From NCBI GenBank assembly GCA_963664815.2, contig CAXXHB010000003.1, forward strand, positions 2,016,001 to 2,080,000: 64,000 nucleotides of DNA. The letters run 5' to 3'. Within the stretch, counting starts at the first letter, position 1; every line of letters begins with the position of its first letter. Made by a program: the position numbers and the translations under genes. The stretch is from Spirochaetota bacterium (GTDB lineage Bacteria; Spirochaetota; UBA4802; UBA5550). Below, piece by piece: positions 35,283 to 43,869 of this stretch. The notes under the pieces were generated by a model. That model was not told the DNA's origin. It saw only the letters and a list, made by a program, of their open reading frames with translations, and did no database searches.

Positions 35283-35627
35283 TTTGTACCTCTTTTTTAG
35301 TAATAAATATTCGTTGCCTGACTTCAATCAAAATATTTAAGCCCAACTATTATAAAAATTCTATATTCATAAATATTTAGTGATTAATTTCATTATCATT
35401 CTTTAACACTTCCATAGGATAAAATAATTTATCAACAGCCTTTTTTTCCGGCCATCATATGAAAAATCTATTTTTAAACTAACAAGATTTTTTAAAGAAT
35501 TATTAATTCAATTATTTGCACAGTACATTAACTTTAAACTATGAATTCAAAACAAGGTTATGCGTCAAACATTTTTTATTTATCTTTTGAATGAATACGA
35601 GGTATTATATGTGTAAACATTTAAAAT

Positions 35628-35658
35628 AAAAAAGGCGCTTAACACTTTAAGCGCCTTT
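35628..35658 (-). terminator. Terminator after tRNA pair
   Basis: AAAGGCGCTTAA-AGTG-TTAAGCGCCTTT followed by T run on the minus strand. Confidence 0.8.
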
Positions 35659-35662
35659 CATG

Positions 35663-35734
<72 letters not shown>

Positions 35735-35749
35735 GTATTCGGCCTCTTT

Positions 35750-35831
35750 TGCGAGCGAAGGGAGTCGAACCCCCACACCTTACGGTACCAGATCCTAAGT
35801 CTGGCGTGTCTGCCAGTTCCACCACGCTCGC
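35750..35831 (-). tRNA. tRNA-Leu(TAG), CCA not encoded
   Basis: GCGAGCGTGGTGGAACTGGCAGACACGCCAGACTTAGGATCTGG-long variable arm-GGGGGTTCGACTCCCTTCGCTCGCA. Confidence 0.97.
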
Positions 35832-36052
35832 TAAAGACGATTGTTATATTTATTAATGGGCAATATAATGCAACTAAATTTTTTATTTTTATCTAAAAAT
35901 TTTTTCGTGGAACATTCTTCTCCAATCATGGGTCAAAAGAATATCAGGCATGAAAAATTCGTTGTTACATAACTAAAGTTACATATATTAAACAATCTCA
36001 TGTGGACTGATCTCTGTTCATTATATTGAAGTCTCAATGGAGTTTACCGGTA

Positions 36053-36463
36053 ATGATTAATCGGTTTCAAATTCTGTCATGCTGCATAGCAGCAGTTTTT
36101 ATTTTTTTTACCGCATGTGATGATCCGTCGGTACCTTCAACCTATAACTTCAAGGTAATGTCATCAGACGGACCATTTACCGGTTATTACTCGGTTGATG
36201 GCGGTTCATTCCAGTATTTTGACGGTTCACTGGCATCCGGAAGTTCCTATTTCTACAGTTATGAGAAAAATTTATCATCTCCTGATTCAATAATGGTCTA
36301 CGCGATAGGTACAGATACATCGGCAACATCAATATCAATTTTTATATATGAAGACGGCGCCCTGGGCGACAGTATAACAGTCTCACAGTCAACCGATTCT
36401 TATGGTAATGATTTAAAGGTTGTAGCAACGATTTCATATACATTCAATGAATCAGATGACTGA
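36053..36463 (+). CDS. Hypothetical lipoprotein
   Basis: Lipobox-like FTAC; Ser/Tyr-rich beta-type mature part. Confidence 0.65.
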   Translation: MINRFQILSCCIAAVFIFFTACDDPSVPSTYNFKVMSSDGPFTGYYSVDGGSFQYFDGSLASGSSYFYSYEKNLSSPDSIMVYAIGTDTSATSISIFIYEDGALGDSITVSQSTDSYGNDLKVVATISYTFNESDD

Positions 36464-36587
36464 TATTATTTCTATTGACTAAACTATCCCTGTTTCTTTA
36501 TTTTTAAAATATGCTGTATATATTTTAAAAAACGGTAAAATTTATGTTTCCAGAAGAGAACATAACCCACAATCAGCCGGGGAAGAA

Positions 36588-37328
36588 ATGACTCCTGAAA
36601 TTCTGTACGAAGACAACCATATAATAATTATCACCAAACCTCCAGGTATGCTTTCACAGGGAGATTCCTCCGGAGATGAATCCATGCTGGATATTCTCAA
36701 GCAATATATTAAAAAAAAGTATAAAAAAGATGGCGATGTTTTTTTAGGTCTTGTTCACAGGCTTGATAAACCGGTTTCCGGTGTAATGGTTTTTGCACGA
36801 ACCTCCAAGGCTGCAAGACGACTTCATACGGAAATAATAAACGGGAATATGGAAAAATATTATGCAGCAGTTATTGAAAAAAAATTACATACAGATAAAA
36901 AATGGCATTTGCTTGAAAACTTTCTGGTAAGAGAAAACAATCTTACAAAAGTTACAGATAATGTCAGCAGCAACTCCCAAAAAGCAGATCTTTACTACAG
37001 AGTAATATTATCATCTGATAAATATTCCCTGATTATTGTAAAACTCGGCACAGGGAGAAAACACCAGATACGTGCTCAATTATCTGCAATCGGTGCACCT
37101 GTTGCCGGTGATAAAAAATATGGTGCTAAGTCGGAATTAAATAACAGAATTTGTCTTCATTCTGTGCTTCTTGCATTTAAACATCCCACCCTGAACAGTA
37201 AGATGTCATTCTACTCGGATATACCGGAAGTATTTAATAAATTAATTCAAACAGATTCAGAAAAAATAAAAAATGAAATACTTGAATTGGCCGCTGACTT
37301 TAAGCCTACGCTTTGGCATCAAAATTAA
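36588..37328 (+). CDS. RluA/RluD family pseudouridine synthase
   Basis: KPPGMLSQ, VHRLDKPVSG, TGRKHQIR, GDKKYG. Confidence 0.92.
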   Translation: MTPEILYEDNHIIIITKPPGMLSQGDSSGDESMLDILKQYIKKKYKKDGDVFLGLVHRLDKPVSGVMVFARTSKAARRLHTEIINGNMEKYYAAVIEKKLHTDKKWHLLENFLVRENNLTKVTDNVSSNSQKADLYYRVILSSDKYSLIIVKLGTGRKHQIRAQLSAIGAPVAGDKKYGAKSELNNRICLHSVLLAFKHPTLNSKMSFYSDIPEVFNKLIQTDSEKIKNEILELAADFKPTLWHQN

Positions 37329-37479
37329 TACCCCTGGTATCCTTAAATGTTTTAATGGTTTTTTCAGTTTCCAGTGCCGTTTTTATTCTTTTACTCTCCT
37401 GTTCCCTGATTCTTTTATCAGAATTTTCAAATACACCCTTTTGCAGCATTTGTACGGAATCTGTTTTGTCAATTTTCAT
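37306..37479 (-). CDS. Small hypothetical protein (57 aa)
   Basis: Strong GAGGGGGGTG RBS; MKIDK...RGINFDAKA. Confidence 0.55.
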   Translation of the reverse strand: MKIDKTDSVQMLQKGVFENSDKRIREQESKRIKTALETEKTIKTFKDTRGINFDAKA

Positions 37480-37766
37480 GTTCACCCCCCTCTGAATCAT
37501 GAAACATCACTACAGGCTTCTTTTATCAGAAACAACTTTAAACCTTATTTATATTATATGCTATAAATATTATAACCTGCAGTATAACTGTTTTCAATAT
37601 TACCCTATACATAGTATAAAAAGAAAAAGTGTAAAAGTCATCTATTTTTCAGCATTAAACTGTCATTTTCTTTTATAATGCATGTTAATTCCTTAACTTA
37701 TATTTCAGTTTAAAATACATGAATTTATTTAATCTGTCTTAGGCGTCGGAAAAAAAATAAAAATTT

Positions 37767-38570
37767 TTATTTTGACCTGATTATCAGTCCATGCTGGACC
37801 TTAAGAACTACACTGTTCTTTATCAGATTACTGATACCCTCAGCCATATCCAGATCACTGATATTACTCTCAGATCTCTGTAAATTCAGATACTGGCAGC
37901 TTTTCCCATCTATCTGAAATGTAAGCACATTGGATTTTATACCCTGTATAATCCGCTTCCTTGTAAGTTTTGTCATGGCTTCATCAACAAGTCCTATGGA
38001 ATTCTCAGGATTATGCAGAACATCAACTCCATCAAGTCCAAGATTTTCAGCAGTCAGCTCCGGAATTATATTTATTTTGTTAAACTGGCTGAATTTTGCA
38101 TTCATATTAACCTGGTTTAACATCTGAGATATTTCAGTCTGTATCAATTCCCTGTCCTCTGCGGTAAAAATTCCGCTTGAAGCCTGAATAATAAGCAGTC
38201 TTATCCTCTGAAGAATATTCTGATCCTCAGCAGCTGCTGATTCAATTGCATTATGAAAATTCCTCATGTCTTCGGCATTCATTGATTCGCGGCTTAACTG
38301 GTTTAAAAGGCTGCTCATTTTTTCGGCAACTGCAAATCCGGATGGATCATCTGAGGCGCTGTTAATTCTTTTCCCTGTTGATAATTGTGCCATCTGTTTA
38401 TCGAGATTGAACGATGTAATCCTGCTCTGATTGAGTATGAAAGTATTCTGTCCATATCCGTAAACATAAAAATTTGCTCCATCCGGCCGGAACAGAAAAC
38501 TGGCATCTTTACCGGGTGCATTCAATGATAAAAGTAAAATCAATGATGCCGCGTATAACAACTTTTTCAT
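37767..38570 (-). CDS. Flagellin-family protein with N-terminal signal-peptide-like extension
   Basis: LSTGKRINSASDDPSG, LQRIR.L..QASSG.....DR..IQ.E, SQFN, SNISDLDMA; begins MKKLLYAASLILLLSLNA. Confidence 0.85.
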   Translation of the reverse strand: MKKLLYAASLILLLSLNAPGKDASFLFRPDGANFYVYGYGQNTFILNQSRITSFNLDKQMAQLSTGKRINSASDDPSGFAVAEKMSSLLNQLSRESMNAEDMRNFHNAIESAAAEDQNILQRIRLLIIQASSGIFTAEDRELIQTEISQMLNQVNMNAKFSQFNKINIIPELTAENLGLDGVDVLHNPENSIGLVDEAMTKLTRKRIIQGIKSNVLTFQIDGKSCQYLNLQRSESNISDLDMAEGISNLIKNSVVLKVQHGLIIRSK

Positions 38571-38776
38571 AATTTACACTCCATAAAAAAATAGTAATAA
38601 ATCTAAAAAAAGTTCCAATTTTAAAAGGGAATATTAAACTTAATCTTCAATCTTTAATTCGTGATAACTACGAAATTCTTACATGAAAATAATCAAATTA
38701 CAGCAAAAGCTTTAATTATGAAAATACTGCTTCATAAAAAAAATACAGAATAATTTTCTGTTATTCCTGCTTTTTT

Positions 38777-40633
38777 TTATCTCTTCAGTATTTTATCAGT
38801 ATCAAGGAGCTGCTGGTTCAGATGAATTACGTTTATATAATTCTTCAACCCTGCAGCTGATTGAATATTTGCACTATCTCCAATAATATTATTTTTTTCG
38901 GATGGATCCTTTTCAAGGTCAAACAGGTATTCCTTACCGTTTTTAAGGTTTGTTATATATTTCAGAGGGTATTCAACCACCTGGAGAAAACGCCCGTTAT
39001 ATGGCTGTACCAGAAAAACCGGGTGTCTGCTTTTACGGTCAAATACCGACAACCCGGTCATCGTATGCGCAACATCTGTTATGCCCAGCATATCTGTAAT
39101 TGTCGGTCCGATATCAATCTGAGAATAAACCCTCCGGCTTATCCGTTCAGGTTTAATTACTCCGTCCCACAGTATAAGAAACGGGATACGGAAGGTTTCA
39201 TCGTAGAAACAGACCTCGTTATTATATATGCCATGCTCTCTCATCGGAAAGCTGTGATCGGCGGTGATTATTATAATCGAGTTCTCAAGGTATTTCCTTT
39301 TATTTAACAATTCAAAAAACACCGGAAGCTGGCTGTCACTAAGTCTTAATGCATTTGAATACTTTTCCTTTATATTCTGAGGATTTTTATATATAGTACG
39401 CTTTTCAGGGGGCATTCCGTCGCAGGGTATATGAGTCCCGATAGTCATAAGCGAAGCGAATACAGGTTTTTGTGGGGTTTTATTATGCAGGGAGTCAAGC
39501 ATACCGAAAAATCTTTCATAGAATATTTTATCTTCAACACCCCATCCCCATATAAACGGTTTGTCTTCTTTCTGTCTGAACTCGCTGTAGGATTTTATTA
39601 TGGAAAAACCGGCTTTCTTCATACTGTTTTTTGTATTATCAAACTGCAGATTATGATATGCCTGGAAAAAAACCGTTTCATATCCTTCTCCTGCAAGTAT
39701 TGAAGGAAAACCCCTGATATTGAGATTCGGGTAATCGACAAATATTTTTCCTTTGAAACTCGGCAGAACTGAAAAGAATATGGAGGCCTGGCCTTTGCAT
39801 GTCTGAACCGAATTGCCGTAAAAACGATCTATATATAACCCTTTTTTTATCAGAGAATTAAAATATGGTGTATAGTCCAAACCATCTGGAGCTTTTGACT
39901 CAACAAAATTAGCATTGAATGATTCAATCATTATAAGGAAAATATTTGGTTTATTTTTTTTTGCCGGTGGAACCGATGAACTTATTGATGTCAAAGGAAT
40001 ACTCTTCCTTTCATAGGGATATTCGGATGTTGATGGATGTGCATAAAGTTCTGAACTTTTACCCGGCAGTGCGCTTTTAGCGAAAAGAGTTAATCCATCC
40101 CCCCCCTGCACCGGAAGTAATACGAGAACAATCCACACAATAAATGAAACCGCAGCCGGTTTGAATTTAAATTTATCATTTATTTCTGCCGTACTGAACC
40201 TGAACTCAATGAATGCAAAGACTGAAAGAAAAACTGAAAGAAAAATTATATCCATTTTGCTGAATGGTGTACTGATCATGGTAAATGCCTCTGCTGAAAA
40301 ACTTATCCCGATATTATCCTTTACCAAAGAAAAATCAAGGGGCGAGCCCGAAGTAAGCTGGTATGCATTTAGTCCCCACAATATGGAGGAAAACAATGGA
40401 AAAAATATTCTCCGCAATATTTTATTTACCAGTAAAATCTCAAATACTGATGAAATCAGATAAAGAGTAAATACGCTGAAAACCGCAAAAAATAAACCGG
40501 AGGGATTTAAAGAATAATCCTGAATATTGTTTATTATAAACAGAACGGTATAAAAAAGCTGAATTACAATCAGCGAAAAGAATAAAAATCCAGGGGCAGG
40601 TATATACGATTTAAATTTACTGTTAATATTCAT
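38777..40633 (-). CDS. LTA synthase / sulfatase-fold membrane protein
   Basis: About 5 N-terminal TMs; PNIFLIMIES, SVQT, TIGTH, IITADH, FRIPFLI, DIGPT. Confidence 0.8.
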   Translation of the reverse strand: MNINSKFKSYIPAPGFLFFSLIVIQLFYTVLFIINNIQDYSLNPSGLFFAVFSVFTLYLISSVFEILLVNKILRRIFFPLFSSILWGLNAYQLTSGSPLDFSLVKDNIGISFSAEAFTMISTPFSKMDIIFLSVFLSVFAFIEFRFSTAEINDKFKFKPAAVSFIVWIVLVLLPVQGGDGLTLFAKSALPGKSSELYAHPSTSEYPYERKSIPLTSISSSVPPAKKNKPNIFLIMIESFNANFVESKAPDGLDYTPYFNSLIKKGLYIDRFYGNSVQTCKGQASIFFSVLPSFKGKIFVDYPNLNIRGFPSILAGEGYETVFFQAYHNLQFDNTKNSMKKAGFSIIKSYSEFRQKEDKPFIWGWGVEDKIFYERFFGMLDSLHNKTPQKPVFASLMTIGTHIPCDGMPPEKRTIYKNPQNIKEKYSNALRLSDSQLPVFFELLNKRKYLENSIIIITADHSFPMREHGIYNNEVCFYDETFRIPFLILWDGVIKPERISRRVYSQIDIGPTITDMLGITDVAHTMTGLSVFDRKSRHPVFLVQPYNGRFLQVVEYPLKYITNLKNGKEYLFDLEKDPSEKNNIIGDSANIQSAAGLKNYINVIHLNQQLLDTDKILKR

Positions 40634-40660
40634 TTAAGCTTTACCATGTCAGTTTTTTTA

Positions 40661-42646
40661 TTACTGTTTTCTTTTTTCGCTGAAAGCTTTGTCAACCATG
40701 GAGTGGTCACCCCCCGGATTCCAGAATGAGTATGACTTACCCCCTCCATCAGTAACCCCTTTAACCTGTTTCATTATATAATCAGTACCCCATGTAGGAG
40801 AATTGTAATTCCAGTCCTGTATCCACTGACGTATTACAGTTCTTCCCCTTGAGTGATAAATTGAACGGATCGAACTGTCCTTTACTATCTGATAAGGCCT
40901 CTCCACATCCGAAAAACGCCTGTAAAATGCAGCACCGAAGTGTGAAGGATATACCATGGGATATATGGCGTCAACAAACCTTGAAAGGAACTGGATGTCC
41001 TGCCCGATAAGGTTGCCGAACCTGTACCATGCATTAAACCCGTAAATGTCTATAGAAACAGGAACACCGGCTTCTTTACGCGCCTGCTGAAGAAAATCCC
41101 CCATAATTTCAGACTTGAACGTGTCATCCTTCTCCCTGTACCTGTACAGACATCTTTTCACAGGTCCGTCAGTCGGGAATCTTATATAATCAAACTGAAT
41201 TTCGTCAAATCCAAGTTTAGCCGTTTCCCTGGCAATTTCAATATTATAGTCACGGACAAACTTCGAATACGGATCGCACCATTTCTCTCTCGGCAGTCCC
41301 ACCCATGGCCTGTTTGAAACCTTATCCCATATGGCATACTTCCCGCCGAAGGCTTCGTAGAGTTTTTTATCTTTAAAGGTAACGTTGCGGGCAATTACAT
41401 AAATTTTATTTTCATGCAGTTTTTTAATTACCTCTTTAATGTTTGTCTTTTTTATTGCGCCGAGCTCACGGGCTGTTCTGGAATCAACAGGGGCATTTAT
41501 CATCCCGTGATCATCCTTGACGTCTATAACCACAGCATTAAATTTATTACGAAGGACTATATCAAGAAATCCGTCAAAGTTTTTATCTATCATCCCCCAG
41601 CTTACATATAAAGCCTGTTTATTTCCCGATTTACTCTTTTCATCCATCGTATACTTCGTTATATCTCTTTTAATAAAAACAGGGGGGTTCTTTTTACTTT
41701 CTTTTACAAATAGCATGGCGGGACCATTATCATTAAAGCATTCCTTAATTTCTCCATAGGCAGGCGAGAGTATAATCTTTTTATCCGCAGGATTGTACTG
41801 GTACAATGCTTCAGTAGTCGCTATAAAAACAGTATCATTAAATGGACTTATTCCATATACACCCTCGGAATTTACATTTTTTACCGGTATATTTACCGGA
41901 TTCCATTTTTTTAAGTCGGTTGTTTCAGCAACTCCGCGGCCGAAAAGATACCCCGAATACAGTTTTCCTTTAACCGCTGCAATAGATGAAACACCTTCAC
42001 AGAAACAGAAATTTCCGGCATAATACTCTTTCGGTATACCGTCGTTTATCTCTTTAGTAGCTGCCGGTGTTATCCGTACAACACCATTGAAAGATGTTCC
42101 CGCATAGATCACATTATCAGCAACTGTCAGTGAAGTAAAATAATATGAATTTTTGTTTTCAACAACATCAATTTTCTGCCAGCTTTTGCCGCTGTCAGCT
42201 GATTTATAAAGGACATGCTTGGTCGCAAGGTATAGTTTAGACTGGTCCGAAGGGTCTATGCAGAATGCCGATATGGATCTGTACTCATCAACACCTGCCA
42301 GCTGAGTTCGCCTCTTCATAAGAGGGGATGATATATTTATCCACGAAGTGTCGCTCTGCGCACGTCTGAATATTCCCGAATATTCAGTTGTAAGGTAGAG
42401 AGTGCCGTTTTTATCGGAAGTAATATACTCCGCCTCAATGTTATCCGGAAGCCCTTCAGACATTTTGTGCCATGAACTGCCGTTATATCCCTTTATCCCT
42501 TCACCAGGGAAATAGCCAATATATATAAAACTCTCAGCCCCCCCTGAACATCCGGCTGTACATGAAAAAAGTAATAATGATATTATTATATATTTAACAG
42601 GATTTCCCCTGAAAACGAATCTGCATATTTTTAAAGAAGAAAACAT
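40661..42646 (-). CDS. Putative glycoside hydrolase (DUF4015-like TIM barrel) with N-terminal beta-propeller, probable lipoprotein
   Basis: NAVVIDVKDDHG, IARNVTFKD, GFDEIQFDYIRFP, PMVYPSH; BNR-like SADSGKSW; lipobox-like FSC/AGC. Confidence 0.75.
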   Translation of the reverse strand: MFSSLKICRFVFRGNPVKYIIISLLLFSCTAGCSGGAESFIYIGYFPGEGIKGYNGSSWHKMSEGLPDNIEAEYITSDKNGTLYLTTEYSGIFRRAQSDTSWINISSPLMKRRTQLAGVDEYRSISAFCIDPSDQSKLYLATKHVLYKSADSGKSWQKIDVVENKNSYYFTSLTVADNVIYAGTSFNGVVRITPAATKEINDGIPKEYYAGNFCFCEGVSSIAAVKGKLYSGYLFGRGVAETTDLKKWNPVNIPVKNVNSEGVYGISPFNDTVFIATTEALYQYNPADKKIILSPAYGEIKECFNDNGPAMLFVKESKKNPPVFIKRDITKYTMDEKSKSGNKQALYVSWGMIDKNFDGFLDIVLRNKFNAVVIDVKDDHGMINAPVDSRTARELGAIKKTNIKEVIKKLHENKIYVIARNVTFKDKKLYEAFGGKYAIWDKVSNRPWVGLPREKWCDPYSKFVRDYNIEIARETAKLGFDEIQFDYIRFPTDGPVKRCLYRYREKDDTFKSEIMGDFLQQARKEAGVPVSIDIYGFNAWYRFGNLIGQDIQFLSRFVDAIYPMVYPSHFGAAFYRRFSDVERPYQIVKDSSIRSIYHSRGRTVIRQWIQDWNYNSPTWGTDYIMKQVKGVTDGGGKSYSFWNPGGDHSMVDKAFSEKRKQ

Positions 42647-42744: not shown

Positions 42745-43869
42745 TCAATTCTTTAAATTGATGTTTAATATCCTGTTAAAATAGTCCATATTTGCATAAT
42801 AGATAAAATCGAGAGCCGAAAAGTTCAGCATTATTAATAGATTATTTTTTATTCCAAGAGAAGTATAGCATGTAAAAGTGGATGTTTCGCTGTCAGCATC
42901 CCATAGTGAAAGCGAAAGCGACCTGTTTTTTAAATCTATCTTTACTGTATCGGCAATTACGCATGACTGAAACATTAATGAAGATGTAAATGTATCTATA
43001 TCATTTTTTTCAAATTTCATGTTTTTTAATTCGATTGATTCAATCCCTATCTGCGCATCCCTTGAAGTAAATTTACTCAGTTCGTATGTATCGTAAATAT
43101 CAAGAGCGAGATCCCCCTTTTCAAAATGCCAGTTTTTGTCCAGGGCAAGCGGAATATTATCAAGCTTTACATTCATACCCTCTGTTTCCGTGATTATATA
43201 TTTTTTATCTTCTGTCCTGGTATTATAAAATACAGGCAGCTTGCTGATCCTTGTGAACATATCCGGATCTTCCTTAAGAACAGAGCCGAAACATACCAGT
43301 TTCAGGGATTTGTAACCCTTCTCACCTGAAGAGTCAGTTTCGGCATTACTGCTTGATTCAAGTTTATAAAATGGAATCCACCATCTGTAGCTGTTGATCA
43401 GTTTTCTTTTGTAGGCTGACCATTCCGAGGCAACAGTTATATCTTTCCTGTTATTTATATCCTGTAAATTTTTACTGGTTTCACCGCCCATATATTTCAT
43501 AAGGTTAAGAAGATCGGCCATTATAAGCGATCCCTCTTTTGCATCACCCTGCATTTCATCTGTAAAAAAATCCATTCCGCCTTTATCCAGATAAAAATGC
43601 CCGAGAAAAAGAAAAGACTCACCGTTACTTATATTGCATGCTCGTATTATATACTGTTTATTATCAGCTTTCATGATCCCAATAAGCCTGTTTACCGGTT
43701 TCACGCTGCCGTATATCCCTGTTCTCATATCGTGGTAGTATACATACTGTCCCGGCCTCTCTCCGGGGAACGGATCAGCTTTAACCATTGTACTCTTTTC
43801 TGCAAAGACAGCAACCTGAATAAAAATTACAGAAAATGCGATAAACAGACATTTCAATTTATTTAACAT
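42745..43869 (-). CDS. Secreted hypothetical protein
   Basis: Signal peptide ending VFA; YVYYHD.R segment. Confidence 0.6.
   Translation of the reverse strand: MLNKLKCLFIAFSVIFIQVAVFAEKSTMVKADPFPGERPGQYVYYHDMRTGIYGSVKPVNRLIGIMKADNKQYIIRACNISNGESFLFLGHFYLDKGGMDFFTDEMQGDAKEGSLIMADLLNLMKYMGGETSKNLQDINNRKDITVASEWSAYKRKLINSYRWWIPFYKLESSSNAETDSSGEKGYKSLKLVCFGSVLKEDPDMFTRISKLPVFYNTRTEDKKYIITETEGMNVKLDNIPLALDKNWHFEKGDLALDIYDTYELSKFTSRDAQIGIESIELKNMKFEKNDIDTFTSSLMFQSCVIADTVKIDLKNRSLSLSLWDADSETSTFTCYTSLGIKNNLLIMLNFSALDFIYYANMDYFNRILNINLKN

Follow-up and report, generated by a model that had tools for sequence, protein, structure and literature searches.

To our knowledge, flagellins are exported strictly through the type III channel of the flagellum. 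The 64,000-nt stretch of Spirochaetota DNA analysed here (the window) holds a gene for which the initial annotation proposed a different route: a flagellin homologue with an apparent Sec signal peptide, delivered independently of the flagellar channel and put forward as a candidate for an undescribed system. The question raised by this locus is whether a flagellin paralogue has been re-addressed to the general secretory pathway and, if so, what kind of protein it has become. If a conserved lineage of flagellins had moved to Sec, it would represent a clean natural switch of export route, one that would be enabled by the periplasmic location of spirochaete flagella.

The reading frame and its predicted signal peptide

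The gene occupies window positions 37767..38570 on the minus strand, as do all of its features given below, and encodes 267 aa from an ATG start to a stop codon at 37767..37769. A GGAG ribosome-binding site (38579..38582), read from the sequence by eye, lies 8 nt 5' of the ATG, in agreement with the initial annotation. The only other in-frame starts within codons 1-70 are an ATG at codon 60 and three TTGs (codons 4, 10 and 16) that all fall within the predicted signal peptide; thus none of them yields a canonical flagellin N-terminus, and the absence of an alternative Met before the helical region, also claimed at the outset, was upheld. The GC content of the gene (0.384) matched that of the window (0.365). 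Five canonical FlaB genes (two tandem pairs and one single; C2:260135-262165, C2:811914-812759 and C3:3799791-3801810), one FlgL-like gene and three FlaA homologues (C3:4096260-4097586 and C3:546035-546403) were identified elsewhere in the source genome, which comprises 5.2 Mb on 3 contigs. The window gene is therefore an extra, odd paralogue and not the cell's flagellin. With five FlaB genes, three FlaA homologues and a paralogue with a predicted Sec signal in one genome, the filament gene set is a rich one.

The predicted Sec (SPase I type) signal peptide spans residues 1-20 (38511..38570) and was assigned by a rule-based test in combination with homologue alignments. Applied to the window protein, the rules revealed the features of a Sec/SPase I substrate: a positively charged n-region (MKK), an h-region within the range of about 10-15 residues (13 residues, LLYAASLILLLSL), small residues at -3/-1 in the c-region NAPG, and neither a Cys lipobox nor a twin-arginine (RR) motif. 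This is the arrangement of MKK, hydrophobic run and NA that had been described originally. Cleavage would most probably occur at G20|K21, as judged by alignment with ..NASG|KDNS of homologues; a simple rule placed the cut at residue 15, and the site may lie anywhere in residues 15-20.

Conservation of the signal peptide was assessed with four criteria, which are textbook features applied by a rule-based script: an 11-residue Kyte-Doolittle window of at least 2.2, K/R ahead of that window, an uncharged run of at least 14 residues, and a small -3/-1 site. By these rules all four features were found in 68 of the 82 family members compared with 0/64 spirochaete FlaBs, and the FlaA homologues of the source genome, used as positive controls, passed the same test (3/3). 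The 14 of 82 members that did not pass were either near misses or gene calls whose start fell within the hydrophobic stretch or a long way upstream of it. The predicted signal peptide is thus conserved among homologues, which the initial annotation had proposed as a check, and the homologues were found not to start downstream of it. Passages of four papers on periplasmic flagella (10.64898/2026.02.04.703737, 10.64898/2026.10.15.759423, PMC9254593 and PMC13144727) report that sheath proteins have Sec signal peptides and FlaB does not, and that the FlaA family is Sec-dependent. Outside the family, a 272-aa flagellin (P0140) has a hydrophobic N-terminal extension before the canonical start MVVNVNISAIN; either the gene call is too long, or this may be another flagellin that bears a signal and arose independently.

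The hydrophobic N-terminus might instead be a membrane anchor, or the protein might still be exported by the flagellar type III system; that the signal call is rule-based and that the residues equivalent to FlaB 11-42 are kept would both be in keeping with this explanation. Cleaved signals typically have h-regions of about this length, whereas anchors tend to be longer; an h-region of only 13 residues and the conserved small -3/-1 residues argue against an anchor here. [quoted passage not shown] We consider an anchor or type III export very unlikely, and prefer the reading of a cleavable Sec signal.

Domain architecture and predicted fold

Analysis with Pfam revealed a match to Flagellin_N at residues 49-168 (1.1e-20; 74.5 bits, cut-off 26.6; profile positions 14-133 of 139) and a match to Flagellin_C at residues 193-254 (5e-5, covering profile positions 2-63 of 86; 24.0 bits, marginal with the cut-off at 23). 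The gathering scores of both models that define the bacterial flagellin class (PF00669 and PF00700) were therefore reached, the C-terminal one barely, and the flagellin N- and C-terminal helical motifs recognised by the initial annotation were confirmed at this level. All NCBIfam flagellin models (e.g. NF009449, NF009446 and NF005294) scored far below cut-off, the best at 90.4 bits compared with 347.

Profile-profile comparison (hhalign) of the family alignment (82 sequences) with 64 spirochaete FlaBs gave a probability of 100 (E 5e-52, 36% identity) and paired mature residues 24-246 with FlaB 11-269 of 281. As the alignment begins at mature residue 24 and FlaB 11 and ends at FlaB 269, the first 23 mature residues are without an equivalent in FlaB, and the final 12 residues of FlaB are not represented. 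The 23 residues form a family-specific N-terminal module (residues 21-43, KDASFLFRPDGANFYVYGYGQNT; 38442..38510) that is unmatched by the FlaB profile; it is beta-prone, aromatic and hydrophobic, and stands in for FlaB 1-10 (MIINHNMSAI). The module motif FLFxPxGANFxVYGxG is conserved, with Pro present in at least 90% of the 82 sequences, and its retention among proteins merely 29-45% identical overall indicates that the N-terminal region is coding.

The module is followed by a remnant of the N-terminal D0 helix with the LSxGxRINxAxDDPAG junction (residues 44-75; 38346..38441), aligned to FlaB 11-42, and by the N-terminal D1 helices with the QRIRxL motif (residues 76-160; 38091..38345), which were identified by Flagellin_N, AF2 and Foldseek. 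A short linker defined by alignment gaps (residues 161-187; 38010..38090) connects these to the C-terminal D1 helix (residues 188-238; 37857..38009), located by Flagellin_C and an AF2 helix, and the protein ends with a shortened C-terminal D0 (residues 239-267; 37770..37856), delimited by alignments and AF2 and terminating in ..VQHGLIIRSK. At the linker site FlaB has extra stretches of 30 and 7 residues (the D1 hairpin region) and other flagellins have D2/D3; the 30-residue stretch that is missing from the family corresponds to FlaB ~137-166, in the ..TASMWxHxGANxxQRE.. region, and the further 7-residue stretch is missing too. The final FlaB residues (..QANxxxQxxLQLLR) give way to a family terminus of G-L-I-I-R-S-K. 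The flagellin motifs LSSGxRIN, DDPAG, QRIRxL and ESRIxDxDMAE are retained. The initial annotation had counted about 25 extra residues before the helical motifs, with no MxINTN start, and had described almost no variable domain and a shortened C-terminal D0; these claims were accurate, the variable domain being absent from the window protein.

The termini of flagellin are needed for polymerisation. Filament-forming flagellins have characteristic D0 termini (an MxINxN start and a ..QANxxPQxVLxLL end), neither of which was found in the window protein, and the signal-less N-terminus expected of them was likewise not found according to the rule-based signal call. Replacement of the N-terminus, together with loss of the D1 hairpin region and of 12 residues at the end of D0, argues that the protein is no normal core subunit delivered via the flagellar channel. 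On sequence grounds, the paralogue is probably a flagellin derivative that is exported by Sec to the periplasm and is not a core filament subunit.

To predict the fold, an AF2 model was built with the mature protein as query and 82 sequences; it had a mean pLDDT of 85.3 and a pTM of 0.68. In full-length numbering, the model contained three short strands of moderate confidence at residues 24-27, 34-39 and 42-47 (pLDDT 66-71) and helices at residues 48-65, 76-131, 137-160, 188-238 and 242-259, with a pLDDT of 83-95 in the N-terminal D1 helices and below 50 in the last 5 residues. Beta hairpins in the C-terminal D1 of a 27-sequence AF2 model (pLDDT 64) were artefacts, and were gone when 82 sequences were used. 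Foldseek comparison with the PDB ranked the Leptospira biflexa FlaB filament 9lrz best (E 9e-13, TM 0.78, 33% identity), followed by 9ls0, 6pwb, 9lry and then other flagellar filaments, and a PDB sequence profile search matched 9lrz at 2.7e-53. A search of the ESM Atlas with residues 1-62 returned no usable match (best score 0.89). As modelled, the fold is a flagellin D0/D1 to which a small sheet has been added at the N-terminus and whose D0 is trimmed at both ends.

An architecture that keeps D1 and the inner D0 and removes both extreme termini would also suit a periplasmic scavenger or chain terminator, which would bind leaked FlaB monomers or broken or uncapped filament ends via D1 and block growth, a role near to the repair subunit suggested in the initial annotation. 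Leaked flagellin cannot diffuse away in spirochaetes, which would be in keeping with this role. This explanation is purely inferential, and most relatives do without the gene; we regard it as distinctly unlikely.

Family, distribution and genomic context

A word-indexed search identified 138 proteins at E ≤0.001. Seventy of these matched at 1e-58 to 1e-163 and were mostly 266-268 aa in length; after them E dropped to 2.4e-19, where ordinary flagellins start. When 1.84 billion representatives were searched exhaustively with a profile, the best 150 matches included about 20 full-length clusters (50% identity) with the same architecture; after these came canonical flagellins, with a MIINHN start and an LLR end. 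No longer or fused forms were seen among the best 150, save an unrelated 1101-aa clostridial flagellinolysin. Where a source named the protein, it was called 'hypothetical protein' or 'flagellin' and came from metagenome bins of Spirochaetes/Spirochaetota. Recurrence of the architecture in 82 aligned homologues indicates that the observation is not due to chance.

Phylogenetic analysis was performed on 74 rows and 235 columns, with 32 family rows and the FlgL of the source genome as outgroup. The 32 family rows formed one clade in both a quick tree (SH-aLRT 99) and a careful tree (UFBoot 96, SH-aLRT 90), the bootstrap of the latter not having fully settled, and this clade sat on a long stem (0.58-0.76). 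The nearest non-family rows were the metagenome sequences P0142, P0144 and P0149, with the spirochaete FlaB clade next; this arrangement was strongly supported in the quick tree (95-97) and weakly in the careful tree (UFBoot 33-51). In the careful tree the very long FlgL outgroup branch joined the stem of the family, which is probably long-branch attraction, and for this reason we claim no branching order. An AU test in which the family and the spirochaete FlaBs were placed together as one side did not reject this grouping (p = 0.39), the group having been picked after viewing the tree. The family is an old paralogue, plausibly of spirochaete FlaB origin. The nearest rows P0142, P0144 and P0149 resemble it in being short flagellins (240-268 aa) that occupy this position in both trees, and P0142 and P0144 are also without the D1 stretch absent from the window family; they differ in that they start MKINTN.., end ..LLR and have no signal peptide. 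These sequences could represent a precursor state.

The distribution of the gene was determined by profile search of 122 genomes of the window's order. It was found in 39 of them, the source genome (G000) included, as a single copy with zero internal stops in 39/39. The carriers comprised 25/78 high-quality genomes and 22/50 genera, and represented all seven families of the order. The gene was not found in the other 83/122 genomes, including 53/78 of high quality, so motility in the window's order does not require the paralogue. Within the window's own taxonomic family it was present in 24/64 genomes. An even sample of the phylum (401 genomes) contained 25 carriers, 24 of them within the window's order and one outside (1/321); the outside carrier, G176, is 88% complete with 8% contamination and has a very long branch. 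No carriers were detected in the three most heavily sampled other families of the phylum (0/75, 0/38 and 0/50). In a family-only tree three taxonomic families each formed one clade, and members of the window's own family were scattered. This distribution fits vertical descent with many losses and is compatible with transfers within the order too.

Comparison of the same three genomes of one genus revealed 62-69% identity for the paralogue compared with 95% for the FlaB orthologue. Such far faster divergence than FlaB fits a peripheral or a non-flagellar role. Fast evolution and patchy presence might also be expected if the gene were a relic, a duplicate of FlaB that is in decay or not expressed, an outcome that the initial annotation had named as one that would count against its proposal. 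The frame is intact in 39/39 carriers drawn from seven taxonomic families of the order, the family-specific motifs are conserved, the ribosome-binding site is good and the predicted fold is confident, all of which speak against decay. A relic is hardly conceivable on this evidence; the paralogue is a single-copy gene, intact in every carrier, that is under purifying selection.

We also examined the genomic context of the gene. Its neighbours in the window encode a pseudouridine synthase, an LtaS-like sulfatase, a DUF4015 protein, tRNAs and trigger factor; none is flagellar, and the gene therefore lies outside any flagellar cluster, as stated initially. Directly upstream on the same strand (38777-42646, minus) are genes for a membrane sulfatase of the LtaS-like type (618 aa) and for a putative glycosyl hydrolase with DUF4015 (661 aa). 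This pair adjoins the paralogue in the same-genus genomes checked (G322, G394, G310, G401 and G403). Across the 122 genomes of the order no link with the sulfatase was evident (both genes in 12, sulfatase only in 12, paralogue only in 27), and no conserved neighbours beyond the genus were found in 27 loci, with up to 8 kb inspected on each side. Pfam analysis covered 86 of 96 flanking ORFs and revealed assorted housekeeping and signalling genes, FliG in L045 being the only flagellar one; the other 10 comprised the two sulfatase/DUF4015 pairs at L121 and L123, all four ORFs at L133, and two at L134, which duplicate L130. Genes with cyclic-nucleotide-binding domains occur at most 2 genes from the paralogue in five loci (L125, L126, L130, L131 and L139), which may be due to chance in genomes rich in such genes. 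Two further window ORFs had no Pfam match: one of 145 aa (36026-36463, plus strand) with a lipoprotein-like N-terminus (..FIFFTAC), and one of 374 aa (42745-43869, minus strand).

Transcription signals around the gene were also analysed. A sigma-70/terminator scan identified nothing upstream of the paralogue. A sigma-28 consensus scan upstream of 27 orthologues gave a mean best score of 7.9 compared with 7.8 for shuffles; the source genome's own FlaB genes, used as controls, gave weak matches too. An Rfam search of window positions 35400-39000 revealed two tRNAs and no other RNA element. By eye, an AT-rich imperfect hairpin with a T-run is present just past the sulfatase stop (38735-38769, minus strand) and is absent from the terminator-scan output; if a terminator, it would make the paralogue a separate transcription unit.

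Absence of flagellar-gene synteny, patchy distribution and fast evolution raise the prospect of a periplasmic but non-flagellar protein, in which the scaffold would self-assemble into a separate filament or layer, perhaps by strand pairing of the N-terminal beta module, or serve some other envelope function. The new hydrophobic, aromatic beta module at the mature N-terminus and the retention of conserved flagellin D1 motifs are consistent with such a scaffold. Parts of D0 drive the self-assembly of flagellin, and these are cut in the paralogue; the family is also found almost only in a phylum with periplasmic flagella. Weighing both sides, we judge a non-flagellar role rather unlikely.

Taken together, these data support one part of the original proposal and not the other. 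A flagellin homologue re-addressed to Sec is favoured by the sequence, given the rule-based signal peptide calls in the family and their absence from the FlaBs; the designation 'undescribed system' is not, as this is a stand-alone gene without conserved partners. It is a single gene of a small family for which we found no published characterisation: no description of a flagellin family with a Sec signal was found in full-text searches of the literature other than supplements and subscription journals.

Proposed role and comparison with known systems

In the role that we favour, the protein would be made with a cleavable Sec signal peptide, cross the inner membrane via the general secretory pathway and end up free in the periplasm, where spirochaete flagella reside. 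The mature product (~247 aa, 27.6 kDa) would keep the helical bundle of D1 along with the inner half of D0. From the periplasmic side it would then dock onto FlaB through its retained flagellin surfaces, as a dispensable accessory protein analogous to FlaA-type sheath proteins, its target being the filament, the filament ends or free subunits. For Sec export, cleavage, periplasmic residence and docking onto FlaB taken jointly, the chances seem to us evenly balanced. The more specific suggestion that a Sec-delivered flagellin-fold protein assembles onto periplasmic flagellar filaments from outside, or caps them, is possible, and we offer it as a tentative one. The proposal of flagellar docking draws on the retained D1 surfaces and on the restriction of the family to bacteria whose flagella are periplasmic; the dispensability of the gene, its fast evolution and the lack of flagellar synteny weaken this proposal.

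If the paralogue does bind filaments, it would be a new kind of component for the incomplete parts list of periplasmic flagella and, if it acts as a sheath or terminator element, the first of these to have arisen from flagellin itself. This would imply that, in the enclosed periplasm of spirochaetes, a flagellin paralogue was able to leave the type III route and take on a new structural role. A Leptospira cryo-EM study invokes a filament-binding 'protein X' whose identity is not given (PMC13144727). The paralogue would also offer a minimal, probably soluble flagellin scaffold for studies of subunit contacts.

Three known types of flagellar protein provide points of comparison. With FlgL (TIGR02550) the likeness is weak and consists of flagellin-type N-terminal helices (88.5 bits), a score below the cut-off of 127.2, and the source genome's own 421-aa FlgL forms a very distant branch. 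The closest in structure is FlaB of Leptospira biflexa (PDB 9lrz, 9ls0, 9lry and 6pwb), with which the paralogue shares the D0/D1 helical fold, homology over FlaB 11-269 and the motifs LSSGxRIN, DDPAG, QRIRxL and ESRIxDxDMAxE. In contrast to FlaB, it has a Sec-type signal peptide, which the rule-based test assigned to 0/64 FlaBs; it carries a 23-residue beta-prone module in place of MIINHNMSAI and is without 30 + 7 D1 residues and the last 12 residues; and it belongs to a separate clade on a long stem that has evolved much faster. In delivery, the paralogue instead resembles FlaA (PF04620), FcpA/FcpB and FlaL1/FlaL2 of T. denticola in its predicted Sec route independent of the flagellar channel, and like FlaA-type sheath proteins it is lineage-restricted and partly dispensable. 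It differs from FlaA in having no sequence relation to it, PF04620 not being among the Pfam matches of the paralogue at E ≤1, and the source genome has three FlaA homologues of its own elsewhere. The fold of the paralogue is that of flagellin, combined with a predicted route of export resembling that of the sheath proteins.
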